The notes: a model not told the origin generated them from the sequence alone. Positions 37,332 through 62,468 are shown, numbered from the stretch's first letter. The stretch is DNA of 64,000 bases from an uncultured Nitrososphaerota archaeon (GCA_963703285.1 OY969807.1:1088001-1152000), one strand, 5' to 3'. Program-made: numbers and translations.

Positions 37332-39005
37332 ATGGCTCAGATTGCAGACATCTCCCTAGAGGTAAGGAAGGAGGTCGCAAAGGGCAAGTTCATCCGGCAG
37401 ACCCAGTCGATATGCCCGGACTGCAACAGGATACTCCCGGCGATTGTCTTCGAGCGCGAAGGCAAGGTCTTCATGACCAAGACCTGCCCGCAGCACGGCG
37501 AGACCGAGGAGCTCTATTTCGGCTCCTACGAGATGTACGCCAAGTTCTCACGCTTCTGGAAGGACGGGAAGGGCACGCACGCGGCCAACGTCCCCATGGA
37601 CGTCTGCTCGTGCCCCGCGAACTGCGGGCTGTGCTCCAACCACCTCTCGCACACGGGTCTCTCGAACATCATCGTGACGAACCGCTGCGACCTAACCTGC
37701 TGGTACTGCTTCTTCTACGTCAAGAAGGGGCTCGAGGGCGCCTACGTCTACGAGCCGACGCTGCCGCAGATTCGCGAGATGGCCCGGACGCTCAAGGCCG
37801 AGAGGCCGGTCCCCGGCAACTCCGTCCAGATAACGGGCGGCGAGCCGACGATACGCGACGACCTGCCCGAGATAATCCAGATTATGAAGGAGGAGGGCGT
37901 AGACCACATCCAGCTCAACACCAACGGGATCAACCTGGCGCTCGACCCCGGGATGGCCCAGAGGCTGAAGGTCGCCGGAGTCTCGAACCTCTACATGTCC
38001 TTCGACGGCACCAGCCCCAAGACGAACCCGAAGAACCACTGGGAGGCGCCCTACGCCATAGAGGCCTGCAAGAGGGCGGGCATCGGCGTCGTCCTCGTCC
38101 CGACGGTCATCAAGTCCATCAACGACCACGAGCTCGGGTCCATCATCGAGTTCGGCCACAGGAACCTCGGCACCGTTCACGCCGTCAACTTCCAGCCCGT
38201 GTCGCTGACCGGGCGCATGACCGCCAAGGAGCGAGCAAAGTACCGCATCACGATACCCGACTGCATCAAGAGGATTGAGGAGCAGACGAACGGAGAGATT
38301 ACCTCGGAGGGCTGGTTCCCCGTCCCGTCGTGCTCGCCGCTGACCTCGTTCATCGAGGCGTTCACCAAGAAGGAGCAGTACGAGCTCTCGATACACTTCG
38401 CATGCGGCGCGGGGACCTACGTCTTCGAGGACGCGGAGACCAAGAAGCTGGTGCCGCTGACGAACTTCGTCGACATCCAGGGGCTCGTCGAGTACCTGGA
38501 GGAGAAGACGGAGGAGATTTACTCGGGGACGAACAGGTACGTGGTCGCCGCGAGGGTCCTCACCCAGATAAACAGGTTCGTCAACAGGGAGAAGCAGCCC
38601 AAGGGGATGTCGTTCGGGAAGATGATAACCAACGCGCTCATCAGGCACGACTACGCCGCCATAGGGGACTTCCACACAAAGTCGATGTTCCTCGGAATGA
38701 TGCATTTTCAGGATAAATACAATCAAGATGAGGAGAGACTTCAGCGCTGCGACATCCACTATCTGACTCCGGACCTGAGGATAATACCATTTTGCTCATT
38801 TAATGTCATACCTGAGTGGTACCGCGACCGCATCCAGCAGAAGTACGGCATGCCGATCGAGGCCTGGGAGAAGAAGGTCGGTCGCAAGCTCGAGGACGGA
38901 CTCTACCGTGGCACCCTTCGCAGAGGCGGCCACGTCGCAGGATGCGGATGCGCGCTCGGCGAGAACGGCGAAGAGATCCACATCCAACCGATAACCGGAA
39001 CCTAA
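37332..39005 (+). CDS. tes: Radical SAM tetraether (GDGT) lipid synthase
   Basis: N-terminal SICPDC..KTCPQHG; CP.NCGLC..H.SHT; TNRCDLTCWYCF; TGGEPT; NFQPVS..GR; MHFQD.YN.D.ER..RC.IHY..IIPFC.FN. Confidence 0.9.
   Translation: MAQIADISLEVRKEVAKGKFIRQTQSICPDCNRILPAIVFEREGKVFMTKTCPQHGETEELYFGSYEMYAKFSRFWKDGKGTHAANVPMDVCSCPANCGLCSNHLSHTGLSNIIVTNRCDLTCWYCFFYVKKGLEGAYVYEPTLPQIREMARTLKAERPVPGNSVQITGGEPTIRDDLPEIIQIMKEEGVDHIQLNTNGINLALDPGMAQRLKVAGVSNLYMSFDGTSPKTNPKNHWEAPYAIEACKRAGIGVVLVPTVIKSINDHELGSIIEFGHRNLGTVHAVNFQPVSLTGRMTAKERAKYRITIPDCIKRIEEQTNGEITSEGWFPVPSCSPLTSFIEAFTKKEQYELSIHFACGAGTYVFEDAETKKLVPLTNFVDIQGLVEYLEEKTEEIYSGTNRYVVAARVLTQINRFVNREKQPKGMSFGKMITNALIRHDYAAIGDFHTKSMFLGMMHFQDKYNQDEERLQRCDIHYLTPDLRIIPFCSFNVIPEWYRDRIQQKYGMPIEAWEKKVGRKLEDGLYRGTLRRGGHVAGCGCALGENGEEIHIQPITGT
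38910..39005 (+). repeat. tes 3'-end repeat, copy 1 (in-gene; left boundary of the island)
   Basis: GAGAACGGCGAAGAGATCCACATCCAACCGATAACCGGAACCTAA (NGEEIHIQPITGT*). Confidence 0.85.
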
Positions 39006-39129
39006 CGAAAGAGAGCCATAGGATCCGGGCTTTCCATTTCCTTTCCTGTGGCCCCTGTCTCCTTGCTTTGAAGCCGATTTAAGTAAAATTTATGACGGTT
39101 TGGGCCCATCTACTGCGGGTCAATGGCCG

Positions 39130-40446
39130 ATGGCCCGTCCAAAATTAGGTCAAAGCACGAGTGACAGGGTGTCAAGAACCGGCTCAATCGATTCGGTGGC
39201 TAGCAAGATACTCTCACAGTGCGAAGTCTTCTTCTTCGAGAGCCATGAACCGGGTAGAAATGCATCCAAGCTTCTTGATTCCACTACGGAGACGTTACTT
39301 CAATACGACGCCTTGAAGGACGAACTCTTACCTTATGACGTAAGCGAAACCCTTCGTAGTGCCCTTCTCACGATTCCCATTACTCATCGCCAAAACGCGA
39401 GAGCCCGCCTGAGAAGACTAATCTCAAGCAATTTGCTAGATGCTAAGGTTTTCGATATCTATTATGCCTTGAATCAAGTCTCGGGCTTTCCTAACCATTT
39501 TAAATTGGGCCATGGAGAGTTGCTCGCCTTTGATTCAGTCCCATCTTACGTCAGAAACAGAATGATACGGGCATGGAAAGGTGAATCGTTGGGCCATGGG
39601 CTGAACGCCAAGAGTTCTTCCGAATTCGTACAGTCGGGGAAGGAACATAACTGCCTGCACTTGACTGTCGCTCGTCGAGGGTTCGCTCGGGCCATAGCAG
39701 AGGCCAACAGAAAGGCCTACGAGTCGGTCAATCTCCTCCGGGTTGTTTACGGACAGGATGTCCCCTTGTTCACGCTAGTTCACGTAAGAAGGGGAAGTCA
39801 CTGGGACATAGGCGCTCTCTCCTACGGAGGCGGCGCCGTGAGGGATCGAAATATGTTCCCGGTAATCCAATACACGACCTGGCCATCTCTTCCTCATGGT
39901 ACGAGGAGAAAGCCATTGGAGACGCGGTATGGCCCTCACCATCTACTTGATATCCAGTACTCCGAGTCACTTGGTAGCATACTGTCCCGGTATAGAAGGC
40001 TGATGCTAAATGAGCATCCATCTGAGCTCGAAAGTAAGCTGAGAAACGCTCTTCTTCTCATTGGGTTCACGTGGGAGGTCGACCTTGATCAAGTCAAGTT
40101 CATCCTACTGATCACGGCTCTTGAAGCTCTGCTTCTGGAAGACTCAGGACAGGGGAACCTTCAACTGAGGCTTGCTGAACGGGTCGCGTTTCTTATTGGC
40201 GAATCTCCTGCAAGACGAGTGCAACTATATGACGAGATGAAGAGGTTCTATGGTCAACGCTCGCGATTTGTGCATCAAGGTGATTTTGAGGATAATGTGG
40301 ATGCTGATATCGCTGAACTCTTCGAAATAGCCAAAAGAGTTTGGGTCCGAGTTGAAGAACTCACAAAAGACGGCTTCGTTCAGCTTAGAAAGGACAAGCA
40401 GAAGAGATCTTTGGATGGTCTAGTTGAAAGGCTGAAATTCACATAA
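39130..40446 (+). CDS. ApeA-like HEPN domain protein
   Basis: L..ALEALL..LAERVAFL..Y..RSRFVHQG (RxxxxH). Confidence 0.8.
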   Translation: MARPKLGQSTSDRVSRTGSIDSVASKILSQCEVFFFESHEPGRNASKLLDSTTETLLQYDALKDELLPYDVSETLRSALLTIPITHRQNARARLRRLISSNLLDAKVFDIYYALNQVSGFPNHFKLGHGELLAFDSVPSYVRNRMIRAWKGESLGHGLNAKSSSEFVQSGKEHNCLHLTVARRGFARAIAEANRKAYESVNLLRVVYGQDVPLFTLVHVRRGSHWDIGALSYGGGAVRDRNMFPVIQYTTWPSLPHGTRRKPLETRYGPHHLLDIQYSESLGSILSRYRRLMLNEHPSELESKLRNALLLIGFTWEVDLDQVKFILLITALEALLLEDSGQGNLQLRLAERVAFLIGESPARRVQLYDEMKRFYGQRSRFVHQGDFEDNVDADIAELFEIAKRVWVRVEELTKDGFVQLRKDKQKRSLDGLVERLKFT

Positions 40447-40473
40447 TGCAGTTTTTGAGAAATCCATTCACAG

Positions 40474-40536
40474 TACGGCTTTGTTCTGGGCTAGAACGGC
40501 GAAGAGTTCCAAATCCAGCCGATGACAGGTACTTGA
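40474..40536 (+). repeat. tes 3'-end repeat, copy 2
   Basis: CTGGGCTAGAACGGCGAAGAGTTCCAAATCCAGCCGATGACAGGTACTTGA (NGEEFQIQPMTGT*). Confidence 0.8.
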
Positions 40537-40790: not shown

Positions 40791-42630
40791 TCATGACCAA
40801 ACAGCGCGGCTCACAGCCAAATCTCCAAGGATCTCTTCACGTTGCCTAATTGCCTCTTCACCAAATTCATTCAACTCGTCTCCCTCGAATGTCGCGTTAT
40901 TGACAGGAAGATTCATGGACAAATATCTTTCACGTTTTTGTTGGTATGGAAGAATTCCGAGTTCACTGTTCTCATCTTGTGAAAGAATTGTGAAATTTCC
41001 GAGCCGATCGACGAAATCCCCATGTTTCATATGCTTCGAAACGAGATACGCGTTCCAATCTGCATCAGGGTTTTGAGGAATCACATGTTCCAGGGTTATC
41101 TCCTTTCCCCACACTCTGTGAAGCGGGGTTGTTTCCATCTGGTCATTGATCATCGTTATGAGGTACTTGACCACTCGGCCCTTCCTATCCTTCATCTCGA
41201 CGAACGCTCTCTTGAGTTCTGCATCATCATGAGGCGTGACTTCCCTGATATGTCCGATGGCTGTTGGAAGGTCAAGACTCCCTGAACGGACCTCCAAGGC
41301 CCAAATACTGTACATCTCTTCCAATTCGTTCGGATTCCCTTCTAGTATTGTATACGCCTTGACACAGAGATTTCGATACGCCTCTAGCAACGATTCGATT
41401 CCACGCAAGTTCCCTGAGAATCGGATATACGCAGCTAGGAATAGAGGCAATGCTTGCCTAAAGCCCAAGTACTCGAGCTCACTAATGAGGTGAGAAATGC
41501 CACTGTGATTCGTCCACTCCGGAGAGGTAGGATCTCTTAGTGCAAAATAGGCTCTAGCTTCATTGGTCATCTTCTGCATGAATGTTTCGAAGGCGGGTGC
41601 AGTCTTTCCACCGATCTCGTTCTTAATCGCGGAACAACTTCTTCTTTCTAACAAACTCATAGTTTGAAAGCCAGAATTGACGCAGAAAATCATCAATATC
41701 ATCCCCTGCTATTTGAGAGAAGCCACTCCATATGTCCTCCATTCTAGGTTGGCCGAGGTCGTGCTCGAAAGTATCAAAGATGAAGTTCTTGAAGAGATCA
41801 CTAACCAAGAGTTTTGTCCCTCGTTGGTTGAGAGTCTCGAAGATCTCATACATGATTCCGATATCGGGAACCTTGTTGTCAAGAACATAGAATCCCGCAG
41901 AAAGCGATGTGTGAAGATCACGCAAATACGACTCGCTTACATCGTTCGATAAGGATGACAAGGCTGCGCGTAGCTGATCTTGATTGTTACCTGTGAGGCG
42001 TGTATTATTGATTCGTGCAATATCCTGGACTAATCTCAGATGATAGAACCGGTAGCAACCAACGATGGCTGAGTTGCTTTTTCCTTCCCCCTTCTCCTCA
42101 CGCAGGGTTGAGATCTTCGAAAGAGAATCCCCCTGGGCACCGCCAGCCGCGCGCAAAGTCAACACCCTGTCAAATAGCACCGAACTATCTTTTCCCAATT
42201 TAACACGAGAAGTGCTCAGACCTCCCGCAGTTTGAAGGAGTGAATCGTGAATTCTTCCTAGCACGTTAGCTCCTTCCGCCGAGATGTTGTAGATGGCTCG
42301 CTTGTAGTCAAGCAAGTCATAAATGACAATTTCGACAATAGCGAGGGTCGCCAATCGTTGCTGTCCGTCGAGGATTCGTAGAGTCCTAGCTTCCCCATTT
42401 GGCAAGAAAAACATCGGGCCGAGAAAATGGAAATTATCATGTGAATCGCGGTCCCCCCTCTGCCGTGCCCTTAACAGATCTTGCAGATCTTCCCAGAGGT
42501 CAAGCCAATTATCACTGTCCCAAGAATATCCTCGTTGATTGACGGGAACGACGAAACGATTATTGCGAAACAACTCCCCAATTTGGACTGGTTTCGAGGA
42601 AGGCAGTACATAGTTCTCAAAATCACTCAT
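40791..42630 (-). CDS. DUF262-DUF1524 (GmrSD/SspE-like) nuclease, frameshifted near 41630
   Basis: QRGYSW, DGQQR and IFETLN.RG..L..SD..KN (DUF262); LEHVIPQ..LGN..L...N (DUF1524 HNH). Confidence 0.88.
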
Positions 42631-42749
42631 AAATCGATATTTGTTGGTAATGATACATATGGCTTTTGCCCGTATCATACGTTCTTGCAAATTGACTTAG
42701 CTTTGGGTATTCCACCTCGAAGCCCAGACAGAATCTTATATAGTCAAAG

Positions 42750-43691
42750 GTGAAACAAGAGCCAGAGAAATTGAATGTTCCTGAGCTAGAAATTGCCGGT
42801 CTTCCTCAGGCAATTGAAAGAAGGTCTGCATTCCCGTTCATCAAATGGGCGGGAGGAAAGGGCCATCTTCTCAGCGAGATTATGCGCTATGTCCCGAGGG
42901 ATTTCTCAGGAGATTACTATGAACCATTCCTGGGGGGTGGGGCAGTGTTCTTCGCGTTGTACCGAACAGGCCACAGTTTCAAGGCTTATCTCTCGGACAC
43001 GAATGAAGAACTAATAAATTGCTATGAAATGGTCAAGAATAGACCAGCCGACCTGCTCGTGCTGCTGAAGATCTTGCAGCAGCAATTTCATGATGCGACA
43101 AACAAAGAAGTCTACTTCTACAATGTAAGAAGTCTGACTCCGACAAGCGGTCTCCAGGCCGCTGCAAGATTCATCTTCCTGAATAAGACATGCTATAACG
43201 GTCTATATCGCGTGAACAAGAAGGGAGTATTCAACGTTCCTTTTGGCGGGTATAGGAAACCCAATATCGTCAACGAAAGCAAGCTTTTCTCAGGAAGCAA
43301 GGCTCTGAACGAATCCAAGTCGAAGTTGAGCGTCTTGGACTACAAGAAATCGATTGATCGATGTCAATCCGGCGATTTGGTTTACCTCGATCCTCCATAT
43401 CACCCAACAAGCAAGACTGCGGCATTCACTGACTACACTACTCAAGGATTCACAGAGCTGGATCAAAGAAACCTTCGGGATTCGTTCGTTTCACTGGCAG
43501 AGCGTGGGTGCAAGGTTGTTCTCACCAATTCCGATACTGGATTAGTAAGAACCCTCTATGATGATTTCCGTAGGAAGCGACTCTTGGTTTCCCGTCCAAT
43601 AAGCTGCAAAGGTTCAGGGCGAAAGGGATTCCACGAGTTACTGGTTTCAAATGTTCCTAGAATAGACACCCAGATCAGTGATTTTGTATGA
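42750..43691 (+). CDS. dam: DNA adenine methyltransferase (Dam, D12 class)
   Basis: KWAGGK, EPFLGGG, RFIFLNKTCYNGLYRVN..G.FNVPFG and DPPY motifs. Confidence 0.95.
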   Translation: MKQEPEKLNVPELEIAGLPQAIERRSAFPFIKWAGGKGHLLSEIMRYVPRDFSGDYYEPFLGGGAVFFALYRTGHSFKAYLSDTNEELINCYEMVKNRPADLLVLLKILQQQFHDATNKEVYFYNVRSLTPTSGLQAAARFIFLNKTCYNGLYRVNKKGVFNVPFGGYRKPNIVNESKLFSGSKALNESKSKLSVLDYKKSIDRCQSGDLVYLDPPYHPTSKTAAFTDYTTQGFTELDQRNLRDSFVSLAERGCKVVLTNSDTGLVRTLYDDFRRKRLLVSRPISCKGSGRKGFHELLVSNVPRIDTQISDFV

Positions 43692-44227
43692 GTTCTTTGT
43701 TGATCATCCTGTCGCAACGCGAAAGAATCCCGAAAGTTCCGCAGGCGAACGAGATTAATCGAATCATTGAGTTAGTCGAGAAAGTGGGTGAAGGTGCTCA
43801 TGATGCCAAGACAATTGGTAAGAGAATGAGTTTTGATCCTCGACAGAGTTCTTACTACCGCGAGGCAGCCGAAATGCTGGGATTTCTTAATCAGCGGAAG
43901 CACTATTCCCTAACTGAGTTGGGAAAACAACTCATGGTGGCCGATCCAACAGCCCGAACACGCATTCTCTTCCTTTCCTTGCTGCGCTTTCCGGTAACCG
44001 GGATAATAGTTGAGAGTCTGGAGGCGGGGCTGCAGGAGTGGATTACTAAGGACGAAATCGAAGTGTATATGGCGAAAGTCAGCAAGCTAGATCCAGATAC
44101 TGTCAAGCGGCGGACGCAAACAATCCTCGCATGGCTGAAATGGCTGGCGAAGAACGGCGGAATCATCGAAGTTTCGAATGATGTAGTAAGGCTATCGTCT
44201 CAATATCGTTTGACGAACTTTGATTGA
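43688..44227 (+). CDS. Stand-alone winged-helix protein (DUF7226-like)
   Basis: PQAN, FDPRQSSYY..AA..LG, LT..G and T..RR..T...W..W motifs; ATGA overlap with dam. Confidence 0.7.
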   Translation: MSSLLIILSQRERIPKVPQANEINRIIELVEKVGEGAHDAKTIGKRMSFDPRQSSYYREAAEMLGFLNQRKHYSLTELGKQLMVADPTARTRILFLSLLRFPVTGIIVESLEAGLQEWITKDEIEVYMAKVSKLDPDTVKRRTQTILAWLKWLAKNGGIIEVSNDVVRLSSQYRLTNFD

Positions 44228-44308: not shown

Positions 44309-46447
44309 TTGGGTTTACGCGACCTGCCTCTAAAGGCTGCGTACGATTCTGACGAGGATGACGTCTTGAATGATTTCTACATCCCAGTTCTTTCAGAATC
44401 CATACGATACAGGAGACTTGCTGGATTCTTCTCTTCCACCTCGCTTGCTGTGGCCGCCCGAGGCATCTACAATTTTGTCTTAAGGGGAGGAGAGATGGAG
44501 CTCATCACGAGCGCGTATCTCAGCAAACAGGATGTAGAGGCAATTCGAGCCGGATTGAAAGAGGCCGATCAAGCCATTTCCAAGTCCGCCCTCGATGAAT
44601 TGGGCAGTATAACTGAGGAGTCGGTGAAGAATAACTTGAAGACACTTGCGTGGCTCGTCGCGAGTAGAAAGCTAAGAATCAAAATCGCCATTCCAATGGA
44701 CGATGGAGGGTGCCCCTTGGAAAGGGATGCAATTGAAACTAAAGGAATATTCCATCAAAAAGTCGGATTGCTCGTGGACGAAAGCGGAGACTCAATTTCC
44801 TTTAGTGGGTCGATCAATGAAACGGCGTACGCTTGGACGAGTAATATCGAGGAATTCAAGGTCTTCAGAAGTTGGGACCAAACTCAAAACTCTTACCTCA
44901 CTAGCGACCGCGCCAAGTTGGACAAGTACTGGACGGGGAGTCCGAAGAACACCCGGGTTATCGACCTACCTACGGCAATTAGGGAACGGCTGCTTGCCAT
45001 GGCTCCGACAAGAATGGAGGATCTCGTCCCTGATGGCAAGGGTCCTGCGCATTCAGGCAGCTTCGTATTGCGCGACTATCAGATAGAAGCAATTGAGAAG
45101 TGGCGCGAGAATGGCTTTAGGGGGATCTTGTCCATGGCAACCGGGACTGGCAAGACACTCACTGCGCTAAGCGCCATCAAGGAACACGTACCCACGACCG
45201 CCCTGAACATCATCGCGGTTCCCACGATCCTGTTGGCAAATCAGTGGAAAGAAGCAATACGAAGAGTGTTTCCGGACTCACTAACACTTGAGTGCGATTC
45301 CTCTACAGCAAATTGGGAAAGCAAACTGAGGGTAATCGCTGATCACCTGAACACTGCTTCTCCAAGCTCCAAGAGATTCTTCGCCATCATTATTCAACGA
45401 ACTGCGGGAACTGAACGCTTCGTCAACATGATTGCGGCACTACCTTCTGAGAAATTATGTCTGGTAGGTGATGAAGTACATCATATGGGCGCCCGCGTTT
45501 CAAGCAACATCATGACGAAGGACTTTTCCTTCAGGCTTGGGCTCAGTGCAACGCCGGAGCGATTTTGGGATGAGGAGGGTCAAAGCCGCATCGTTCAGTT
45601 CTTCGGCCGCATTGTCTTCGACTATCCGATAAGTCGAGCTTTGAAGGATAAAGTTCTGTGCGAGTACTTGTATTATGTTAAGCCGGCGATATTGGAGGAT
45701 ACCGAACTAATCCAGTATTCAGACGTAACAACGGCCATCTCTGGGAAAATCACACGACTACAACGCCTGTACCCCTCATTGAGGAGTCTTGCGTTCCCTA
45801 GCCTTCTTGGGAAGCTGGGTGCACTGGATCCTGATGAGTTTTCGTCGCTGCAAGCGCTTCTTCAAACTCGGGTTAACATACTCAAGCGCGCACACAACAA
45901 GATAGAAGCGACCCGTGAGATAGTCCAAGCTGGCGGATTGAAACGATGTCTTATCTACTGCAATGATATAGAACACGTTAAGGAGGTCGTTGAGATGCTT
46001 GGGACTTTAAATATCGGTGCCCTCGAATACGATTCTTCGATGAAGGACGAGGACAAGGAATCGAATCTCTCCTCGTTTGCTGCAGAATCTGGTGGTTTTC
46101 TTGTTGCAGTTAGGTGCCTCGACGAGGGAGCCGATATTCCTTCATGTGATAGTGCCATAATCGTATCAAGTTCGAAGAATTCAAGGGAATTCATTCAGCG
46201 CAGAGGAAGAATGCTCAGGCGCAGCGAAAACAAAGATTTTGCAAGAATCCACGACATACTCATTTTGCCGATGGACCCAGATTCATCCTCTCGGAGTCTG
46301 TCTGAACCGGAGTACCGAATCATTGATTCAGAACTGGATAGAGCGCGCCTATTCGCTGAGTCCGCTAAGAATAGCTCCGAAGTGTTGCTCGACATTGCCC
46401 GAATTGCGAGGGCGCTGTCGGCGAAGGTGAAGCGGGGAGAAGAGTGA
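44309..46447 (+). CDS. pbeA: PLD nuclease plus SF2 helicase, PbeA-like
   Basis: FYIP.L..Y.R.AGFFSS; FHQK.G...D..F.GS.NET; MATGTGKT; DEVH; GLSATP; LDEG.D.P; QRRGR.LR. Confidence 0.85.
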   Translation: MGLRDLPLKAAYDSDEDDVLNDFYIPVLSESIRYRRLAGFFSSTSLAVAARGIYNFVLRGGEMELITSAYLSKQDVEAIRAGLKEADQAISKSALDELGSITEESVKNNLKTLAWLVASRKLRIKIAIPMDDGGCPLERDAIETKGIFHQKVGLLVDESGDSISFSGSINETAYAWTSNIEEFKVFRSWDQTQNSYLTSDRAKLDKYWTGSPKNTRVIDLPTAIRERLLAMAPTRMEDLVPDGKGPAHSGSFVLRDYQIEAIEKWRENGFRGILSMATGTGKTLTALSAIKEHVPTTALNIIAVPTILLANQWKEAIRRVFPDSLTLECDSSTANWESKLRVIADHLNTASPSSKRFFAIIIQRTAGTERFVNMIAALPSEKLCLVGDEVHHMGARVSSNIMTKDFSFRLGLSATPERFWDEEGQSRIVQFFGRIVFDYPISRALKDKVLCEYLYYVKPAILEDTELIQYSDVTTAISGKITRLQRLYPSLRSLAFPSLLGKLGALDPDEFSSLQALLQTRVNILKRAHNKIEATREIVQAGGLKRCLIYCNDIEHVKEVVEMLGTLNIGALEYDSSMKDEDKESNLSSFAAESGGFLVAVRCLDEGADIPSCDSAIIVSSSKNSREFIQRRGRMLRRSENKDFARIHDILILPMDPDSSSRSLSEPEYRIIDSELDRARLFAESAKNSSEVLLDIARIARALSAKVKRGEE

Positions 46448-51412: not shown

Positions 51413-51712
51413 ATGAGCTTCTCTGAGGCCAAAGTCGAGCAGGTTTGGCAGAAGGCTACACAGGTTCCCGATCCTCAAAATCCAAGGTGGGCAAAGGATG
51501 AATGCGGAGCTTGGATCTACAGGGGCAACTACGGTAGGCGTGACCTAGTATATGGCTGGGAGGTTCATCATATCCTACCGGCCTCAAGAGGGGGGTCCGA
51601 TGACTTGTCGAATCTAATCCCTCTCCAGTGCGATAACAATATTGCGACTGGCGATGGTCCTCTTCGATGTGTGATGAAGGCAAACGGTAACAAGAATGTT
51701 CGCGTTGGATAA
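51413..51712 (+). CDS. Small HNH endonuclease
   Basis: VW.K..D.CGA.I..GWEVHHI.P...GG.D..SNL.PL...NN. Confidence 0.85.
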   Translation: MSFSEAKVEQVWQKATQVPDPQNPRWAKDECGAWIYRGNYGRRDLVYGWEVHHILPASRGGSDDLSNLIPLQCDNNIATGDGPLRCVMKANGNKNVRVG

Positions 51713-54152: not shown

Positions 54153-54638
54153 TCATGCGATAGGACAGCCGTCTACAATCTTGTCTCCGCTCTCGAGTCT
54201 CGGCAATGGGGCATCCATATTTGGCACCTTACTGCCAATACGGTGATGTTGGATTGTACTTGGATTTAGGAGTCTAAATCCGTTCTTGTGGCTGTCCTCC
54301 ATATTCGACGACTCTTCAGTAAATTGACAAAGGGTAATGGATCCATCGAGAGTGTGCCGCATTGACGACAGACTAGCAACAGCGTCGAATTTGCCATCTG
54401 CTAGAGCATCTCCTATGCCCTTGAGCAGAACCTTGTTCACTTCCCCTATTGTTGGGCACGCCGGGCCAGGGTCTTCTGCTTCCAGGATTGGCTTGAGTTT
54501 TTGCTCGACGTATTTCGAAACCGAATCGTCCCCCTTCCTATCCTTGATCTTGCGCAGACCATTCCGCGTTGTCTCGTCAAGAGACAGATTAACTGCCTTA
54601 TGCCCGCCATCTTCCGCTGGTCTGCCTCCGGTTGTCAT
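54153..54638 (-). CDS. Putative ribbon-helix-helix DNA-binding protein; may continue by frameshift to 53855
   Basis: GRP..VNLSLD..T...L..SVSKYVE pattern. Confidence 0.5.
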   Translation of the reverse strand: MTTGGRPAEDGGHKAVNLSLDETTRNGLRKIKDRKGDDSVSKYVEQKLKPILEAEDPGPACPTIGEVNKVLLKGIGDALADGKFDAVASLSSMRHTLDGSITLCQFTEESSNMEDSHKNGFRLLNPSTIQHHRIGSKVPNMDAPLPRLESGDKIVDGCPIA

Positions 54639-54661
54639 TGAGTTTCCTGCGCATGATTTTC

Positions 54662-54669
54662 CATATATG
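54662..54669. promoter_or_regulatory. Palindromic bidirectional TATA element
   Basis: CATATATG lies about 21-30 nt from the divergent ATGs at 54638 and 54690. Confidence 0.5.
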
Positions 54670-54689
54670 TGCCTTATTACCCGAAAGAC

Positions 54690-56255
54690 ATGAACGCCGA
54701 CGAAGGAACAATCAAAGAGCTTGAGAGTCTCGGCAAGCGAAAACCACTGTCGAAAGAGGACCTCAACCGGGCCAAGGACCTGATGGTCGCGCTGAAGCAG
54801 CACGGGTACACGGTCGAGGAGATCGCCGAGCTCTCCGACGGCGGCTGGTCGGTCCCCTCGGTGAAGAACTATGTACGTGGCGTGAAGGTCCAGGACGCGA
54901 CCTCGAAGCTCAACCTGATCTCCTCTTTGAAGGAACTGTTGGAGAAGGGAATCGCATTCGAGCAGGTGACCTCGGTAGCCGGTGCTATCCAAGAGCTCGA
55001 CTCCATGGGCCTGTCGATCGGGGACGTGTCAGCGGTATTCACGGAGGCGGCCGAGGCACGTTACCCATTGAAACAGTTGTTGGACCTGCTCGAAGAGGCG
55101 AAGGGTTCCGGACTTTCGGCCCTTCGCATGGCGGACGCGCTCAAGTTCAAGGACCTGTGCGACTCCTCCGGAATCGGTTTCGATAGCATGGCCAGCTTCG
55201 CTACGAGCCTAAAGACCTACGGTGATGCCGATTCGATTCTCTCGGCGATCAACCAATACGGTTCCCTCGAATCGATTCAGGACGATGTTGCGAAGGCGAA
55301 GGAGCAGAAGGACAGACTCACCGGAGAGATTCACAAGGTGGATGGCCAGCTCAACCAGCTGAGGGCTAAACAAGCGGCAATAGAGCCTAGTATCCGATTG
55401 TACGAGAAGCTCCAGAAGGCTGGGTTCGACGAAGGAGCGTTGCGAGAGCTTGAGACATCATCGGCCAAGTACGAAGAACCCAAGACGCTACTCAGGGCGA
55501 TCAACGCTTTCGGGAGCTTGAGAGAGCTGGAGACCAAGGCGAAAGATGGGAAGAAGAAACTCATCGATGTGGAGACCAATCTGAAGCAGACCCAAGCCGA
55601 GTACAGTCACCTCATGCCGGTGATCCACATGCTCACCAGACTCCTATACGAGCTGAAGTTCAATCCAGAGCGGATTACCCAGCTTTACCGAATGGCCGAG
55701 GCCTACGGTGAGCCGCTCGAGGTGCTGGGTGCGATTGCCAAGTACGGGGATATCAAGCGACTGGAAGAAAGGATATCCTCGCTCAGAGAGACGGACGGCG
55801 AACTCGCGTTGAGAGAGATCCAGCTTAATGCCAAGCTGGAACAAACGCAGGGTCTTCTCGACGATCTCGGTTCAAAGATTCCCGATCTCACGAAGAGGAT
55901 TTCGGACGAACTTCACAATGCAATCAAGTCCATTACCTTTGAGGCGACAAAATACTCTGAAAACCTGGGAAGTCAGAAGGCCAACGCAGCTCAGTTCGCC
56001 GAGGAACTCAAGGTCGCACGCATATTGTTGACCATCGACAAATACCCGGGCGAAGCCGTGCACCTTCCCCTAGACTACGTCCTCCTCATGATGCGAGGGG
56101 TCAAAAGATACTGCCACACGAAAGAGCTTAACCCGAAAGTTGTGCCCGGCAATCTCGGGAAGAAGTACTGGTTCAGTATAGAGGACAAGGAAATTGAACT
56201 CTACGACCTCATAGACTTGGTCGAGAGAGGCCTGTCAAAACCCATCGGAGGATGA
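54690..56255 (+). CDS. Long coiled-coil protein with an N-terminal HTH-like motif
   Basis: GYTVEEIAEL..WSVPSVKNY; three AI..YG/FG.L..L repeats. Confidence 0.75.
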   Translation: MNADEGTIKELESLGKRKPLSKEDLNRAKDLMVALKQHGYTVEEIAELSDGGWSVPSVKNYVRGVKVQDATSKLNLISSLKELLEKGIAFEQVTSVAGAIQELDSMGLSIGDVSAVFTEAAEARYPLKQLLDLLEEAKGSGLSALRMADALKFKDLCDSSGIGFDSMASFATSLKTYGDADSILSAINQYGSLESIQDDVAKAKEQKDRLTGEIHKVDGQLNQLRAKQAAIEPSIRLYEKLQKAGFDEGALRELETSSAKYEEPKTLLRAINAFGSLRELETKAKDGKKKLIDVETNLKQTQAEYSHLMPVIHMLTRLLYELKFNPERITQLYRMAEAYGEPLEVLGAIAKYGDIKRLEERISSLRETDGELALREIQLNAKLEQTQGLLDDLGSKIPDLTKRISDELHNAIKSITFEATKYSENLGSQKANAAQFAEELKVARILLTIDKYPGEAVHLPLDYVLLMMRGVKRYCHTKELNPKVVPGNLGKKYWFSIEDKEIELYDLIDLVERGLSKPIGG

Positions 56256-57169
56256 AGATGTCTCTCGATGATATCAGCCGCAGTCTGGCAGAGATGGATG
56301 CGGTGAAGAATTACGAGACCATATCTGAACAATTGAAGCAGAGTCAAGCTAGGAGCGAAGCTCTCACGAAGGAGGTTGAATCCCTCAAGCAGAAGGTGAC
56401 GGACCGCACTAACACTGCCGTGGAGCTGGGCTTGAAGGTCAATCTTTCTCTTGAAAGACTGAAACAAACGAAGGAGGAGAACGAAGCGCTGCGAGACCAC
56501 GTTCTCATTCTAGAAGACTTGGAGGCCACGACCGATGGGAAGAATCTTCCAGAGGTCCTTGACGCTTTACTCAAACTGAACGCTGCTGAAATCGAGAAGA
56601 GAAGCAAGGATCTTGCGATTAAATTGCACAACAAATGGGAGAAGAATGAACGGCCGAAGCAGGTCATGGAAGAGGCCGCTTCGTTTCTCAAACAGACTCT
56701 ATCAATCATAAACTCGGGCTCGAGCGACTTCGGGAAGGATCTTACACAGGTGGGAATTCCAGACTTGGTGAAAGCGGTCCTGGAGTCGGAACACAAAAAG
56801 AGGATTGATGAGGAGTTTCTGAAAGGGGTCGATGTCGAGTCCACCAAGATTGCGGGGGGCAAGCTGGAGAAGCTTAAGACGGAAGCCTGGCCGAAATTCG
56901 TCAAGGAACAGGTAGAGCCAAAGGCTTCAGAGCTTGCAACTATTCTGCACGATCAACTCGTGAACTTCCTCTCCGGAGAGTACTGGTTTCGATGTGACAA
57001 GTGCCAAACGGAGGGAAGCTTCAGACTTCTTCCCGAGCATATAGCTCAAATGTTGATGGACGGGTGGTTCAAGATTCAATGCGGGAATGAAGCGTGCCGA
57101 GACCCATTTGGGAGGCACGAAATCAAGCTTAGCGTTGTCGATTTTATCACGAATCGATTACTCCCATAG
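56252..57169 (+). CDS. Coiled-coil protein with C-terminal zinc ribbon
   Basis: CDKC..CGNEAC..H; ATGA overlap with the upstream gene. Confidence 0.75.
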   Translation: MKMSLDDISRSLAEMDAVKNYETISEQLKQSQARSEALTKEVESLKQKVTDRTNTAVELGLKVNLSLERLKQTKEENEALRDHVLILEDLEATTDGKNLPEVLDALLKLNAAEIEKRSKDLAIKLHNKWEKNERPKQVMEEAASFLKQTLSIINSGSSDFGKDLTQVGIPDLVKAVLESEHKKRIDEEFLKGVDVESTKIAGGKLEKLKTEAWPKFVKEQVEPKASELATILHDQLVNFLSGEYWFRCDKCQTEGSFRLLPEHIAQMLMDGWFKIQCGNEACRDPFGRHEIKLSVVDFITNRLLP

Positions 57170-58432: not shown

Positions 58433-59506
58433 TCAAGGGACCACCCTTCTCATCGTGTGGCTGGACGATATCTCATCGTGCTGTTCGGGTGCGGTGTTGT
58501 CGAATTGGAACCCTTCATTCTTGTACAACGCGAGTGCTGGCTCGTTTCCATCTCGAACAATCAAGATACACTCTTTTGCCGACTTGCTCTTGAAATATTC
58601 CTGAATTATTTCCAAGAGCCTCTTTCCTATTCCGAGTCTTCTGTAGGGAGAATCTACTGCAATCGAATCTACCTCTCCAATGCCACGTTCGTCGATGTAT
58701 CCGATTGTGTATCCAACGACCTTGCCCAGTATTTCGGCAACGAAAAACCCGTCCTTATGGTCTCTAAAGTACTCGAGGAATTTCTCTCTTGAATACGCAT
58801 CAGCCGCTAGGAAGGAACTCACCTCGACCTCAGTAACGCGGTCGATTTGCGCCGATTCAACAGGGCCGTACCGGACTTGTAGTTCTTCCATCAGGAAGCG
58901 CTTGAGGTTCGCTTGACTCGTCTCCCGCTGGATTTCTGCAAACCCCTCCTTTTTCGAGACCTGAGCGGACGCGATTTCGTTTAGGTGTTGGAACTCACCA
59001 TAGTATTCTTGACTTCCTCTCTCTGTTCTGTAAGCTTGGATATAGTCCTGCAGGACTTCCCAATACGGAATTATCCAGTAGCTCGGGATGGACCAAACAG
59101 CATACTGGCGGACTAGGCCGCTTCGCAGCATCAATCCGAAGTCCTCAAAGTAGTCCAATAATTCGTCCGCGTATTCTTCGTATAGCTTGAAATGGCCCTT
59201 GTAAAGCAGCAAGTTACGGGCCAAATTGCTTCTGACCTGGCGATACTCCGTCGAATCGAATTTGTCCATCTCTCTACGAAGAAGTTCGTATGCCGAGACT
59301 TTCGATGTCTGCTTGATCTGTATGTAAAGGTAGTAGACGTAAGCAACGGTAAAGATCGCAACGAGCGCTTCCCAGAAGATAGGAGATGTGAGCACGCTAG
59401 GCAGAACAGTTGAAAAACTGGCAGACGAACTTGCGGAGCTTAACGAGCTGGAAGCCCCCTCGTTCGCTAGGGCAATCCATTCGTTAACAATCTGGAACAC
59501 GTTCAC
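58433..59506 (-). CDS. TM / DUF4760-like helical domain / GNAT acetyltransferase fusion
   Basis: TM segment; LLDYFE..G..++.G; YY.EF..L; C-terminal IAV...YRRLGIG..N..A..LY...GF. Confidence 0.75.
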   Translation of the reverse strand: MNVFQIVNEWIALANEGASSSLSSASSSASFSTVLPSVLTSPIFWEALVAIFTVAYVYYLYIQIKQTSKVSAYELLRREMDKFDSTEYRQVRSNLARNLLLYKGHFKLYEEYADELLDYFEDFGLMLRSGLVRQYAVWSIPSYWIIPYWEVLQDYIQAYRTERGSQEYYGEFQHLNEIASAQVSKKEGFAEIQRETSQANLKRFLMEELQVRYGPVESAQIDRVTEVEVSSFLAADAYSREKFLEYFRDHKDGFFVAEILGKVVGYTIGYIDERGIGEVDSIAVDSPYRRLGIGKRLLEIIQEYFKSKSAKECILIVRDGNEPALALYKNEGFQFDNTAPEQHDEISSSHTMRRVVP

Positions 59507-59692: not shown

Positions 59693-60631
59693 ATGATGTC
59701 AGAGAGCCAGTATCGCCCCCTAGGTGCCTCACGAATAATGGTCTCTCCCCTCGGCACCGGGACCAACAGGTGGGCCCAAGGAAAGAACGACGAGGCCGTT
59801 TTCCAGACCTTTCGATCCCTTGTTGATGCCGGGGTGAACTTCTTTGACACGGCTGAGGTCTACAGCATGGGAAAATCCGAGCGCCTCCTGGGCGCCTGTC
59901 TCCAGCGGGACCCCCGACCGGTGGTGATCGCCAGCAAGTTTGCGCCGTACCCCACACGCCTCTTCCGCCGTCAGTTCATGCGCGCCCTGGACGCCAGCCT
60001 GATGCGTCTGGGCAGGCAGACGGTCGACCTGTACTACATCCACTTCCCCAATACTCTGCTAAGCATCGAAACCCTGATGGACCTGATGGCGAAAGCAGTC
60101 GCGGCGGGCAAGGTCCGTGCGGTGGGCGTAAGCAACTTCAGCGCCGAGCAGATGCGCAGGGCCGCGACCCGCCTCGAGCGGTACGGCATCCCTCTGGCCG
60201 CGAACCAGGTTAGGTACAACCTGCTACATCGCCAGCCGGAAGAGGATGGTGTTCTGGCTGCCTGTCGGGAACTCAACGTCGCCCTTGTGGCCTATCGTCC
60301 GCTGGAGAGGGGACGACTCAGGTCGGACATCATCCCAGGAGCGGCGTCCGATTCGCTCTCCGCGGTAAGTAACAAGGGCAAGGCAGTTGCAAAAGAAGAG
60401 GCTATCCAAGAGACGCTCCACGCGATTGCGGAGCAGCGCGGAAAGAGCGTCAGTCAGGTCGCCCTGAACTGGCTCCTGCGCAGAGACGAACACGTGATAC
60501 CCATTCCGGGCACCACAAATGCGCGTCACGCGCTAGAGATTGTCGATACTCTCAAATGGCAACTCAGCGAGGACGAGTTTGCAGCCATCGACCATGTTTC
60601 CTCGCCGGCCCCGGGCATCTCGGCCTCCTGA
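59693..60631 (+). CDS. Aldo/keto reductase
   Basis: FDTAEVY, DLYYIH, GVSNF and IPIPG motifs. Confidence 0.95.
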   Translation: MMSESQYRPLGASRIMVSPLGTGTNRWAQGKNDEAVFQTFRSLVDAGVNFFDTAEVYSMGKSERLLGACLQRDPRPVVIASKFAPYPTRLFRRQFMRALDASLMRLGRQTVDLYYIHFPNTLLSIETLMDLMAKAVAAGKVRAVGVSNFSAEQMRRAATRLERYGIPLAANQVRYNLLHRQPEEDGVLAACRELNVALVAYRPLERGRLRSDIIPGAASDSLSAVSNKGKAVAKEEAIQETLHAIAEQRGKSVSQVALNWLLRRDEHVIPIPGTTNARHALEIVDTLKWQLSEDEFAAIDHVSSPAPGISAS

Positions 60632-60634
60632 AAA

Positions 60635-60720
60635 GGCACCCGCGGCGCGGCGGCCACGTAGCCGGCTGCTGCTTCGCTCTGGGCGAGGACGGCGAAGAGG
60701 TCCACATCCAGCGGATCACT
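60635..60720 (+). repeat. tes 3'-end repeat, copy 3 (longest, with indels)
   Basis: GGCACC..CGCGGCGGCCACGTAGCCGGCTGC..CTGGGCGAGGACGGCGAAGAGGTCCACATCCAG (RGGHVAGC..LGEDGEEVHIQ). Confidence 0.85.
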
Positions 60721-60777
60721 TGATGGTGCCCCTAGACACTGACGAAATTCATATATGCGAGATGCGATAGTTACGAA

Positions 60778-61479
60778 GTGATGGGCCTGGGCAGCGGTAA
60801 CAACGCGGTTCTCGTCAGCGGTTGTAAGAGTCTGCAGAACCTGACTGTGGACCTGTGGGTAACGGAGGACTTGGTCACGCTCGGGAACAACGGATTCTCG
60901 CTCCAATTGAACTGCTATCCGCAGACCAACCCCCAATCTACCCATGAGGGCACGCCGCTGAATTGGATTCAGTACGTCATCGCGGTAGTAAACGACTCGC
61001 TGGAGTGGGGGATCCAGTACTGGTCCCAGCCAAAGGGTTTCGGTTACAGCCCTAGTCCAAATTACGTCTCATTCGGCTCTGCCCCATCGAACCAAGTGCT
61101 CGCAGGCTCGGTGATGAGGATAGCGCTCATCACTGATTCCGGTGACAATGTGACACATGCGACATTCAGCGTTACCGATCCCAAGGGCAAAGTTTCCAGC
61201 CACACGTTCGCGTTCCCGTCTAACGCCTTGTCTGCGATCTATGGCTTCCAGGTCGATCTCGTAGGACCGCCCAGCGGCACCCACAGCTGCAACTTCACGT
61301 CGGGAGCGGGGACCCTGACCTACGCGGTGGGTCCCTCAGGGACGCTTGCGGTACAGACCACCAACACGTGCGGCGGCAGTCAGCCCGGCACGGCCGAGAC
61401 GTCCAATTCCAAGTACGGCACTGTCAATACAGTCGTCATTATAGTTCTAACCATACTGATTCAATCCGTATCAGTCTAA
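60778..61479 (+). CDS. Ser/Thr/Gly-rich beta protein with a thermopsin-like SLQLN motif
   Basis: GFSLQLNCYP..WIQY; hydrophobic C-terminus. Confidence 0.55.
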   Translation: MMGLGSGNNAVLVSGCKSLQNLTVDLWVTEDLVTLGNNGFSLQLNCYPQTNPQSTHEGTPLNWIQYVIAVVNDSLEWGIQYWSQPKGFGYSPSPNYVSFGSAPSNQVLAGSVMRIALITDSGDNVTHATFSVTDPKGKVSSHTFAFPSNALSAIYGFQVDLVGPPSGTHSCNFTSGAGTLTYAVGPSGTLAVQTTNTCGGSQPGTAETSNSKYGTVNTVVIIVLTILIQSVSV

Positions 61480-61945
61480 TCCCAGCCCAGAGGCTGAACG
61501 ACACCCGCGCGCCATCCACGAATCAAAATTACACAAAGCGTGTTCTATGCGCGATACCGTCAAGATAAGAGAGTGATTATGGCTAGGAGGACGCCCTTCG
61601 CATTCATTTGATGCTCCTCTTTCCTTTGTCCGTCAGCATCCACTGATTCTGCCTTCCGACCCTTTTGCCCTTGACAAGACCCTCTGAGACTAATTCGTAC
61701 AAATGAAGCTGGGCCGTGTTCCAGCTCTAAGGGATCGCCTTGGCACTCATCTCCGTCTCTATTGGCCAGGCTTCCGTCAGCAAGTAGGCGACTACCTATC
61801 GAATTTGTAAGCTCATTTTCTGTGGTTCTGTTTCGGTAAAGGAGGAAAAGGCACACACTTGGCATGATGTGATTGTGCTCTCGGCGAGAACGCCGAGGAA
61901 ATCCATATCAAAGCGATGGCTGGCACTTGAGCCCGGGCGTGGCTA

Positions 61946-62380
61946 TTGCGGCCTAAGGTTCAGGTAGTTTTCGACTCCAAGGATCCCGAGCGTTTAGCTT
62001 CCTTCTATGCCAGGGCCCTAGGCTACAAGCTGCAGGAGCCACCCAAGCCCTACGCGTCCTGGGACGAAGCTCAGAAGGACTGGGGCATCCCCGAAGAAGA
62101 CTGGCACGACTGGGCGGCGATAGTCGACCCCGACGGGACGGGCCCTCGCATCTACTTCCAGAAGATGGACACCCTGAAGACCGCAAAGAACCGGCTCCAC
62201 ATCGACGTGAACGCGAGCGAAGGGCACACCGCCTCTCCCGAGAAGCGCAAGGAGCAGGTCGGGGCCAGGGTGGACTACCTGAAGTCGCTCGGCGCGAGCC
62301 GACAGGGCGAATTCGACGAGAACGGTGACTACTGGGTCGTCATGCTCGACCCCGAAGGCAACGAGTTCTGCGTCCAATAG
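61946..62380 (+). CDS. VOC family protein (Glyoxalase_6)
   Basis: FD..DP..LA.F...LGY; KNRLH.D; DPEGNEFC. Confidence 0.92.
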   Translation: MRPKVQVVFDSKDPERLASFYARALGYKLQEPPKPYASWDEAQKDWGIPEEDWHDWAAIVDPDGTGPRIYFQKMDTLKTAKNRLHIDVNASEGHTASPEKRKEQVGARVDYLKSLGASRQGEFDENGDYWVVMLDPEGNEFCVQ

Positions 62381-62408
62381 GTCTGGCCCGCGTTGCCGTC
62401 TGCGAATC

Positions 62409-62468
62409 GGCTGCGGGCTTCCCTAGAACGGCGAAGAGATACACATCCAGCCCATCACCGGGAGCTAG
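62409..62468 (+). repeat. tes 3'-end repeat, copy 4 (right boundary of the island)
   Basis: CTAGAACGGCGAAGAGATACACATCCAGCCCATCACCGGGAGCTAG (NGEEIHIQPITGS*). Confidence 0.85.

Follow-up and report, generated by a model that had tools for sequence, protein, structure and literature searches.

Tandem cassettes bounded by copies of the tetraether lipid synthase gene end in uncultured Nitrososphaerota

Results

Copies of the tes 3' end bound a tandem cassette array

We analysed a 64,000-nucleotide stretch of DNA, hereafter the window, from an uncultured Nitrososphaerota archaeon (GCA_963703285.1 OY969807.1:1088001-1152000). At the 3' end of tes, the gene encoding tetraether lipid synthase, cassettes stand in a tandem array, and each of them is delimited by a copy, on the same strand, of the last 10-160 tes codons. 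A previous reading of the window, made without reference to other genomes (the sequence-only reading), had described the tes 3' end as a recurrent insertion hotspot with an integron-like, integrase-less array. That core inference is supported here. The arrangement is reproducible across genomes and metagenomes, and is more general than first seen. The genome that contains the window, which we call G000, is one contig of 2,252,123 bp. It was placed among the Nitrososphaerota, close to 'Ca. Gagatemarchaeum' (genus g1).

The anchor gene of the array, tes (37332-39005, + strand), encodes a protein of 557 amino acids (aa). Tes scored 691.9 bits against NCBIfam model NF045702 (cut-off 450), a match at equivalog level spanning residues 23-508, and Pfam identifies a Radical_SAM domain and an N-terminal HMPTM zinc ribbon. 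Since the NCBIfam model covers only residues 23-508, the last 49 residues form a tail outside the model; the recombining tail is in this unmodelled part.

The G000 genome was searched with a 57-column nhmmer profile of the last 57 nucleotides (nt) of tes, built from 38 genus tails. There were exactly seven matches (E-values 9.8e-16 to 8.7e-6); the eighth had an E-value of 0.28. All seven tails are on the + strand and no more than 28.3 kb downstream of tes, five in the window and two just past its end. Their scores, from copy 0 to copy 6, were 58.5, 48.8, 48.1, 42.0, 41.6, 51.4 and 26.6. A repeat search of the window returned one family with five same-strand copies (at 38925, 40456, 60649, 61850 and 62388), which share 63-82% identity with the reference copy over 71 nt. 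When 38850-39030 was compared with the genome by short-word BLASTN, the search found the two extra copies, at window-equivalent positions 64250-64314 and 67165-67198, and no further match better than E 0.076 in the whole genome. Two exact copies of a 13-mer core do occur elsewhere in G000. These are a coding coincidence in two paralogous genes (G-N-V/I-H-I-Q-P-G). The motif is thus not scattered through the genome; tails are restricted to the tes locus.

The three recurrences of the last tes codons listed in the sequence-only reading were all found on the + strand, and the peptides that it gave for the tes end and these copies (IHIQPITGT, FQIQPMTGT, VHIQRIT and IHIQPITGS) are correct. Its total of four copies was too low. 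The copy at 61847-61930 had been missed, the two past the window end were out of its view, and the array runs on beyond both 62468, where the island was said to finish, and the end of the window.

Copy 0 (38949-39005, +; nhmmer E 9.8e-16) comprises the functional last 18 codons and stop codon of tes and would be the proximal recombination site. It consists of a conserved block followed by five variable last codons. Copy 1 (40483-40536, +; nhmmer E 1e-12, also found by tblastn) reads VLG-stop-NGEEFQIQPMTGT-stop. Copy 2 (60622-60723, +; GLLKRHPRRGGHVAGCCFALGEDGEEVHIQRIT-stop) has a left arm of 33 codons; nhmmer aligned 60674-60723 (E 1.7e-12) and tblastn detected the left arm from 60622 (E 5.7e-9), so that the stop codon of the preceding reductase gene falls inside the copy. 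Copy 3 (61847-61930, +; KGTHLA-stop-CDCALGENAEEIHIKAMAGT) was found by the repeat search, tblastn (E 2.1e-6) and nhmmer (E 1.4e-10). Copy 4 (62412-62468, +; nhmmer E 1.8e-10) reads GLP-stop-NGEEIHIQPITGS-stop. Beyond the window, copy 5 is at window-equivalent 64277-64331 (+; nhmmer) and copy 6 at 67165-67198 (+; nhmmer and BLASTN). In a relative, G014, the sequence following copy 6 is found again ~77 kb from tes and is itself followed by weak tails; the distal end of the G000 array is therefore not defined.

The copies were said to begin about 50 nt or less from the stop codon of a + strand cargo gene. This holds in all three cases: the stops are at 40446 (448-aa open reading frame, ORF), 60631 (aldo/keto reductase, inside the copy) and 62380 (VOC gene). 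Many of the differences from tes are synonymous, as had also been noted. In the five copies extending as far as the stop, the last 17 codons comprise 7/5/5, 7/5/5, 6/6/5, 7/6/4 and 9/7/1 identical/synonymous/non-synonymous codons, or 5-7 synonymous codons each. The proposal that the copies were once coding tails of other tes alleles fits two observations: variation in the last five codons has a period of three, and long copies resemble the tes of other species more than resident tes.

Arrays vary between genomes of the genus

A Tes query found a match in 39 of 41 related genomes. Extra partial matches (residues ~400-557) occurred only within genus g1, and tail arrays are present in most of the 22 genus genomes searched. 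In these relatives, each genome has 1-9 further tails downstream of tes. Their 3' limit is always the tes stop codon, while their 5' limits range from codon 397 to codon 548. Cargo downstream of tes varies between genomes of the same genus, as the hotspot proposal anticipated; only 6 of 54 ORFs in the G000 region belong to clusters common to any relative.

One genus genome, G007 (a single genome, 88% complete), shares this tes end, and its assembly contains no tail at all. In G007 a convergent housekeeping gene for phosphoenolpyruvate (PEP) synthase begins 200 bp after tes. The 'aminopeptidase' gene (62630-63886), which the sequence-only reading expected to adjoin tes at an empty site, is itself cargo between two copies. 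PEP synthase was rejected as the ancestral right flank: it follows tes only in G007, is 10 kb away in G008, and is absent downstream of tes in 80 named loci and from G000 altogether.

Of the named loci, 60 extend 3 kb or more beyond tes, and each of these was queried at the protein level with its own Tes tail. Tails were found in all five same-genus loci and were clear in one of the 55 others. That locus, L065, is from another thaumarchaeal lineage (Tes 84% identical) and has own-type tails at 13054-13248 and 14616-14684, 1.4 and 3 kb downstream of tes (E 2.7e-35 and 1e-14). The second encodes a peptide 100% identical to the resident tes end, with many synonymous differences. The L065 tails do not share the Gagatemarchaeum nucleotide core, and were found by the protein query but missed by a nucleotide query with the locus's own tail. 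Matches at L057, L059 and L060 (E 0.001-0.006, 31-37% identity) were marginal and are read as noise.

Two further regions deserve description. In G014:C8 (826,001-908,000; L041, L128-L131) the variable region after tes extends for at least 80 kb and has nine tails, one of them inverted, the distal ones weak and much decayed. In G017, two contigs of one metagenome-assembled genome are distinguished by 1.4 kb inserted exactly behind the tes stop codon (L040 2381-3817, G017:C10, compared with L039). A LAGLIDADG-domain gene lies in this insert, the end of which is a 36-nt fragment matching tes codons 488-499 rather than a terminal tail.

Metagenome cassettes behave as separate units

A 26-letter core pattern was used to search JGI metagenome contigs. 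Of the 98 matching stretches, 80 were kept as loci, all from soil metagenomes, and a profile search of these found 191 tails, with up to 11 and 12 on single contigs. The tails are all on one strand in 78 of the 80 loci. The 111 spacings between tails have a median of 815 bp (interquartile range 584-1116, extremes 373 and 5227 bp). Cassette ORFs of at least 60 aa showed no strand bias: of the 211, 103 were on the same strand and 108 on the opposite one. They fall into 139 clusters, of which 100 are singletons.

Pfam assigned 51 families among 100 cassette ORFs of at least 110 aa. The best 25 of the 51 families include PIN (7 ORFs), GNAT (3), alpha/beta hydrolase (2), M23 (2) and Fic (2), with single ORFs for HicA, a KaiC-type ATPase, ABC transporter parts and others. 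There was no recombinase among these best 25 families.

To compare contexts, 150 cassettes were cut at their tails from 67 sources, and those with at least 75% identity over at least 70% of their length were called homologous. This gave 55 homologous pairs from different sources. The upstream neighbour differed in 15 pairs, was the same in 8 and lay off the contig in 32; the downstream neighbour differed in 13, was the same in 8 and lay off the contig in 34. Neighbours therefore differ in 28 of 44 scorable comparisons, the other 66 leaving the contig; the counts are not independent since some pairs are near-identical contigs of one population. Cassettes behave as separate units whose neighbours are exchanged.

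The stretch is present in four soil-metagenome runs, all from one study, and their Logan contigs were examined for excision or variant junctions across 12 kb covering copies 2-6. No such joints were seen, and at copies 2, 3 and 6 several contigs span the junction in agreement with the assembly. Contigs of this low depth cannot reveal rare forms, so the check counts neither way. Loose contig ends clustered at L134 4329-4374 mark a conserved VOC-gene motif and are from other organisms.

Exchange probably falls inside the tail

Two shared blocks locate the exchange relative to the tail. The ends of L033 3698-4961, aligned with L034 2205-3484 (84% identity), and of L035 6014-6495, aligned with L043 4034-4513 (92% identity), fall inside tails. 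In both, the last codons and stop follow the downstream cargo and sequence left of the core follows the upstream cargo, which places the exchange inside the copy. The sequence-only reading had suggested that each arrival supplies a new tes tail. This is right for the last ~five codons and the stop; the rest of the copy travels with the upstream cargo. Among eight distinct alignments of downstream tails, four keep the left arm (35 to ~260 nt) as far as ...CATCCAGCC and then diverge.

The clearest evidence for the breakpoint is the pattern of variation by codon position. In 35 internal genome tails, the information content at codon positions 1/2/3 was 1.43/1.58/1.49 for the codons GTC CAC ATC CAG and 1.51/1.63/0.44 for the last five. 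In 14 first copies, which are mostly true tes ends, the values were 1.78/2.0/1.63 and 1.85/2.0/0.65. Variation in the last five codons is thus confined to the wobble position, while the preceding 32 nt are conserved. Across 164 full-length tails, four-fold sites inside GGCGAG...CATCCAGCC had 1.1-1.6 bits and those just after it 0.1-1.0. One-base insertions or deletions occur left of the core in several tails, and none occurs between the core and the stop.

We infer that crossover takes place at or just 3' of the conserved block, near the boundary between ...CATCCAG and CC (that is, GGCGAG...GGCGAGGAAGTCCACATCCAG followed by CC). Every right arm would then periodically be joined to tes, and must encode ...PITGT-stop; left arms would never be translated.

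Other arrays and repeats in the same genome

A second array occupies 59 kb of G000 (1,532,882-1,591,868; L233-L236) and consists of ~35 same-strand repeats of 55-70 nt. Its cassettes are 0.5-2.5 kb long, with mostly small ORFs on the - strand, and neither end has a recognisable recombinase. Within the genus, 17 of 22 genomes contain a 27-nt segment of the repeat (three mismatches or fewer), as against 0 of 19 from elsewhere; it is absent from G007. Many copies end in TAG in one frame, so the repeat may have originated as a gene tail. Next to the last repeat is a 376-aa ORF, which was considered as the enzyme and rejected; with only 6 homologues in 5.8 billion proteins, it is cargo. The sequence TCCACA is common to the tes core and the second-array repeat, and the last G000 copy breaks right after it, but six bases are too short to weigh. 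Past the second array, in an apparent rRNA region, lies a gene for a 182-aa LAGLIDADG endonuclease (1,594,287-1,594,835, L236 12287-12835, - strand) that is probably intron-borne.

A third array (2,032,653-2,039,007; L238 2653-9007) has six copies of the 3' end of the gene for elongation factor 2 (EF-2), downstream of that gene. The gene is on the - strand and encodes 729 aa, identified as EF-2 by similarity to PDB entry 8hl1 (E 1.7e-249); the tail copies are spaced 460-1514 bp apart. In addition, three direct copies of a tRNA-like end, 43-123 nt long, occur at 193,382, 197,187 and 205,105. This chain is probably another site with tandem inserts.

No recombinase is recognised in or beside the arrays

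The absence of a visible recombinase from the island, reported in the sequence-only reading, was upheld: none was recognised by Pfam, NCBIfam or PHROGs among the 41 ORFs of the G000 array, nor by phmmer with a genus integrase (see below). 'Integrase-less' here means that no recombinase is recognised; several cargo ORFs stay unannotated. The ten ORFs upstream of tes (LysE, XdhC and others) include no recombinase, and the window has no PF00589 match.

The sole PF00589 match in G000 is a 412-aa tyrosine integrase with a C-terminal zinc ribbon, encoded 500 kb from the array. Its gene lies directly after a tRNA-Leu gene, the 3' 42 nt of which recur 22 kb upstream. This 22-kb integrated element (1,605,081-1,628,601; L032) has 42-nt direct repeats that correspond to the 3' end of the tRNA-Leu gene. 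The integrase was rejected as the array enzyme; it belongs to an ordinary tRNA-Leu element, and its homologues are patchy in the genus (11 of 22 genomes, variable copy number).

In five array-bearing relatives, none of 14 PF00589 matches was in the tes-downstream stretches examined, and G013, which has a rich array, has no PF00589 match at all. A phmmer comparison of the 412-aa integrase with array-bearing sequence (689,483 nt, giving 3,689 open frames) matched only its zinc ribbon. G000 also has one resolvase-domain gene beside a TnpB-like gene, nine TnpB-like genes above cut-off, and no Cas1 (PF01867) or IS110-type match above cut-off. None of the resolvase or TnpB-type genes is near the array, and they were set aside as its enzyme. 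A 1.4-kb inverted duplicate, 97.8% identical, is associated with resolvase-domain and TnpB-like genes (634,285-635,675 and 684,562-685,951); the two look like IS607-type copies.

A search of 2.9 million viral contigs with the core pattern found no attP-like tail. Folding of both DNA strands of the tes tail and the second-array repeat gave z-scores of -1.7, 0.07, 1.93, 1.97, 1.09 and 0.88. There was no hairpin or attC-like structure in either sequence, and no Rfam family was matched in 36 kb.

Cassettes and cargo of the G000 array

The six cassettes after tes are 1531, 20187, 1207, 538, 1865 and 2865 bp long, with G+C contents of 0.491, 0.508, 0.54, 0.63, 0.60 and 0.59 (whole genome, 0.606). 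Between 39 and 52 kb, the G+C content of the window falls from ~0.60 to 0.45-0.51.

Cassette 1 encodes a 448-aa protein of no known family (39100-40446, +), with no Pfam, NCBIfam or PADLOC match and one weak PHROG match. A C-terminal R-x4-H motif of the HEPN type (RSRFVH) was read by eye.

Cassette 2 is a 20-kb composite block (40537-60621, genes on both strands) in which nhmmer found no internal tail. Pfam and PADLOC identify a GmrSD-like gene split into two overlapping ORFs (40791-42690, -), a D12 methyltransferase (42750-43691) and a DUF7226/REase-like gene (43688-44227). These last two precede genes for a PbeA helicase (44309-46447; PADLOC 672.9 bits), a PbeC/DndD-like ATPase (46635-48632; 212.2 bits) and a 136-aa ORF. 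The segment 44309-49039 is a Pbe-type defence module within the low-G+C cassette, for which other PADLOC matches were HEC-06/Orf5 and MTase_II. According to Pfam, there follow a LAGLIDADG-domain gene fragment (49093-49560, -), a CHAT fragment (49872-50435, -), an RNase H-like exonuclease (50755-51432, -) and an HNH gene (51275-51712). ORFs at 52100-53287, 54153-54992 (-), 54669-56255 and 56252-57169 have no family match. The cassette finishes with Pfam-assigned genes for a GNAT protein (58433-59506, -) and the aldo/keto reductase (59693-60631, +).

The remaining cassettes are simpler. Cassette 3 encodes a 233-aa protein (60778-61479, +) of no known family, with no match in Pfam, NCBIfam or PHROGs. 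Cassette 4 encodes a 144-aa VOC/glyoxalase-like protein (61946-62380, +; Pfam Glyoxalase_6, E 4.9e-25). The 418-aa product of cassette 5 (62630-63886, +) weakly resembles M29 peptidases (PF02073, E 8e-4, below cut-off). Cassette 6, between copies 5 and 6 beyond the window, carries a second reductase gene (- strand), a PIN gene and a zinc-ribbon gene.

Discussion

Host recombination as the proposed engine of the array

We favour host homologous recombination, acting on repeats seeded by integrative elements, over a recombinase acting in trans, and give it an even chance of being the engine of the array. Classical integrative elements that target conserved gene ends would have seeded the first duplications. 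Host homologous recombination would then act on the 30-57 nt or more of shared tail, and would insert, delete and swap cassettes acquired from relatives by ends-in (Campbell-type) insertion and by loop-out between direct repeats. The array would grow from its tes-proximal end. Since no recombinase is recognisable in the array, the reaction would work in trans. Gain or loss of a cassette beside tes would replace the last Tes codons by a synonymous version, and so leave the enzyme intact.

Four observations argue for homologous recombination. Firstly, several unrelated anchors are used in one genome, with no matching set of recombinases. Secondly, left arms derive from foreign tes alleles. In three of six comparable tails, the long left arm is 86.8-93.8% identical to the tes of other species compared with 82.2-91.5% to resident tes; in the other three, resident tes is the best or joint-best match. 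Thirdly, the second lineage (L065) has own-type tails with a different nucleotide core. Finally, the patchy distribution of integrase homologues (11 of 22 genus genomes) speaks for homologous recombination rather than one dedicated site.

Several points weigh against this account. Homologous recombination could act at any conserved gene, yet few carry arrays, and the seeding step is an assumption. Direct observation of a cassette being excised or inserted is lacking. Conservation of the 32-nt block extends even to four-fold sites, and tails of only ~30 nt persist; a protein-binding site would explain these features too. Core conservation is itself partly a matter of ascertainment, since metagenome loci were chosen by the core pattern and tails by the profile. 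In at least two of the eight tail comparisons homology stops before the tail, the rest of those other than the four that diverge after ...CATCCAGCC being unclear. Ungapped tests for linkage of the arms gave weak signals: right-arm identity was 0.784 against 0.695 for random pairs where upstream neighbours differ, and left-arm identity was 0.652 against 0.616 where downstream neighbours differ. Lastly G007, which has the same tes end and no tails, second repeats or integrase homologue, hints at a missing trans factor.

Alternative explanations

The strongest rival, which we consider unlikely though well short of negligible, is that the tail serves as an att site for one or more dedicated but unrecognised site-specific recombinases working in trans, with the cassettes as miniature non-autonomous elements. 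Either rare autonomous elements or an enzyme encoded on the chromosome could mobilise these (compare IntI, or the integrase of an integrative and conjugative element, ICE, acting on cis-mobilizable elements). In its favour, a minimal site of ~30-57 nt persists in many independent cassettes, and the conserved four-fold sites of the 32-nt block give way sharply to free wobble after CAG/CC. Crossover at the extreme 3' end of long shared arms in four of eight comparisons, and the tight range of cassette sizes (interquartile range 584-1116 bp), point the same way. So does the co-occurrence of tes tails and the second repeat in one genus, both being missing from G007, which has the site. Of 68 cases of thaumarchaeal integrative elements, moreover, 14 involve the 3'-distal part of a protein gene, according to the main text of PMC6563490. 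Conversely, no such enzyme was found in or adjoining any array, and G013 is rich in cassettes without a PF00589 match. Because the tes, EF-2 and second-repeat arrays are built on unrelated sequences, several enzymes, or a guided one, would be needed. The L065 tails, which lack the shared nucleotide core, and the absence of an attP-like tail matching the core pattern from 2.9 million viral contigs also tell against it.

The array could instead be a static graveyard, in which successive integrase-bearing elements entered at the tes end, lost the integrase and most of their genes, and left immobile remnants. Archaeal elements are known to re-use one att site in tandem (PMC6563490, main text), the 20-kb low-G+C defence block resembles a decayed larger element, and distal copies tend to be weaker in G000 (58.5 down to 26.6), with a similar trend in G014. 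Against this stand the narrow spread of spacings about a median of 815 bp and the lack of any recognised integrase remnant in 689 kb of arrays. Immobile remnants would also not be expected to lie between different neighbours, as the same cassettes do in 28 of 44 scorable comparisons, or to retain a working frame through the stop in their right arms. We regard this explanation as improbable.

Least credible of all, and very improbable, is that a LAGLIDADG homing endonuclease cuts the tes end and that cassettes are then copied in from donor arrays during repair, as happens in mating-type switching: a 395-398-aa LAGLIDADG_3 protein is encoded in arrays of G015, G017, G014 and G004, directly after the tes stop in G017:C10, and a fragment occurs in the window (49093-49560), but the protein is found in a minority of arrays only, its paralogues are ordinary conserved thaumarchaeal genes, it has no PDB sequence match above noise, and the tes end beside its gene is unchanged, so that the site carries no immunity.

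Comparison with known systems

Parts of this arrangement have parallels in bacteria. In Streptococcus, integrase-less cis-mobilizable elements (CIMEs) reportedly accrete beside ICEs at the 3' end of fda. These too are att-flanked units that pile up at the end of a housekeeping gene with the enzyme elsewhere; unlike the tes cassettes they are bacterial, number few units per site, and are said to have a known cognate ICE integrase. The minimal mobile elements of Neisseria are exchanged by homologous recombination in conserved flanking genes. Here also, host recombination swaps cargo with conserved gene sequence as the anchor and no element-encoded enzyme. Each Neisseria element is one cassette between two different genes, whereas the tes anchor is repeated and arrays are therefore possible. 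The 3' end of icd in Escherichia coli is duplicated by phage 21 and by e14. As at tes, a diverged and largely synonymous 3' end displaces the resident one, which is left as a pseudo-tail. The icd case differs in being a single prophage with its own integrase, rather than an array of small cassettes.

In systems that grow by att accretion, direct repeats resembling the 3' end of the target gene surround each unit, and this is also what is seen at tes. Such systems have an integrase in each autonomous unit, whereas none was recognised in the tes-tail arrays. Casposons, which combine a Cas1 casposase with terminal inverted repeats and duplicate a short stretch of their target, also differ from the arrays: G000 has no Cas1, and the repeats, of 30-480 nt, are in direct orientation.

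Krupovic et al. (2019, PMC6563490) describe thaumarchaeal integrative elements that occupy the 3'-distal part of a protein gene, as well as casposons arranged in tandem at the EF-2 gene. The likeness to the tes arrays is considerable, as far as the main text of that paper goes. The 3' end of a conserved gene is targeted and gives way to an end, with a new stop, that the element brings; the insert lies between direct repeats, and one site is re-used in tandem. EF-2, the casposon target, is an array anchor in G000 too. The thaumarchaeal elements are 5-100 kb long and have their own integrase or casposase, whereas units of the tes array are mostly shorter than 1.5 kb and carry none. We found no mention of tes among the targets named in PMC6563490, and 'radical SAM' occurs 0 times in its main text.

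Integrons, and clusters of attC sites without an integrase (CALINs; archaeal cases in the main text of PMC9668308), offer a close formal comparison. In both systems, same-orientation sites lie between short, mostly single-gene cassettes of ~0.4-1.5 kb, the diverse cargo is rich in toxin-antitoxin and acetyltransferase genes, cassettes are shuffled and reordered between genomes, and many arrays have no adjoining integrase. The differences are equally clear. Two features that help to define an integron are lacking: there is no IntI-type recombinase at the tes arrays, and tail sites are not attC hairpins, which form when imperfect inverted repeats fold in a single strand (z-scores from -1.7 to +2.0). 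Nor is cargo co-oriented (103 versus 108 ORFs), as integron cassette genes are, with expression from a common promoter, Pc. The site is instead the coding end of an essential-type gene, whose last codons are renewed at each exchange.

In archaea, only integrons of the attC/IntI type are reported in PMC9668308, the main text of which does not contain Thaumarchaeota or names beginning Nitrososphaer-. The main text of the Gagatemarchaeaceae genome paper makes no mention of integrases, mobile elements, genomic islands, integrons or tetraether lipids. Among the listed papers joining tetraether lipid synthase and integration, titles and the openings of abstracts revealed none on an insertion site. 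We found no earlier description of a tes-anchored array in the literature surveyed.

Significance

We tentatively propose, at somewhat less than an even chance, that soil Thaumarchaeota of the Gagatemarchaeum group run an undescribed gene-capture platform, a 'gene-tail integron'. Its site would be either a repeat of 55-70 nt or, as with tes and EF-2, the 3' coding end of a conserved gene, and each cassette would have its own copy of the site. It would work with no cassette-borne or adjacent integrase, through host recombination alone or an unrecognised recombinase family. Well over 100 cassettes (defence, toxin-antitoxin, small enzymes) would circulate in this way, as a common pool, among acidic-soil populations.

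For annotation, repeated tes or EF-2 3' fragments in these organisms should be read as array punctuation, and not as assembly errors or pseudogene noise. In metagenomes, the tes tail is a sequence tag for gene flow and for the accessory-gene pools of uncultured Thaumarchaeota. Should the exchange depend on an unknown recombinase, this would be a new enzyme with a defined substrate of 30-57 nt. If host recombination suffices, conserved gene ends become capture platforms without dedicated machinery. Integrons are the textbook gene-capture device of bacteria. Soil archaea of an abundant group show the same outcome, in tes arrays of ordered, swappable single-gene cassettes enriched in defence and toxin-antitoxin genes, and may have reached it by a second route.

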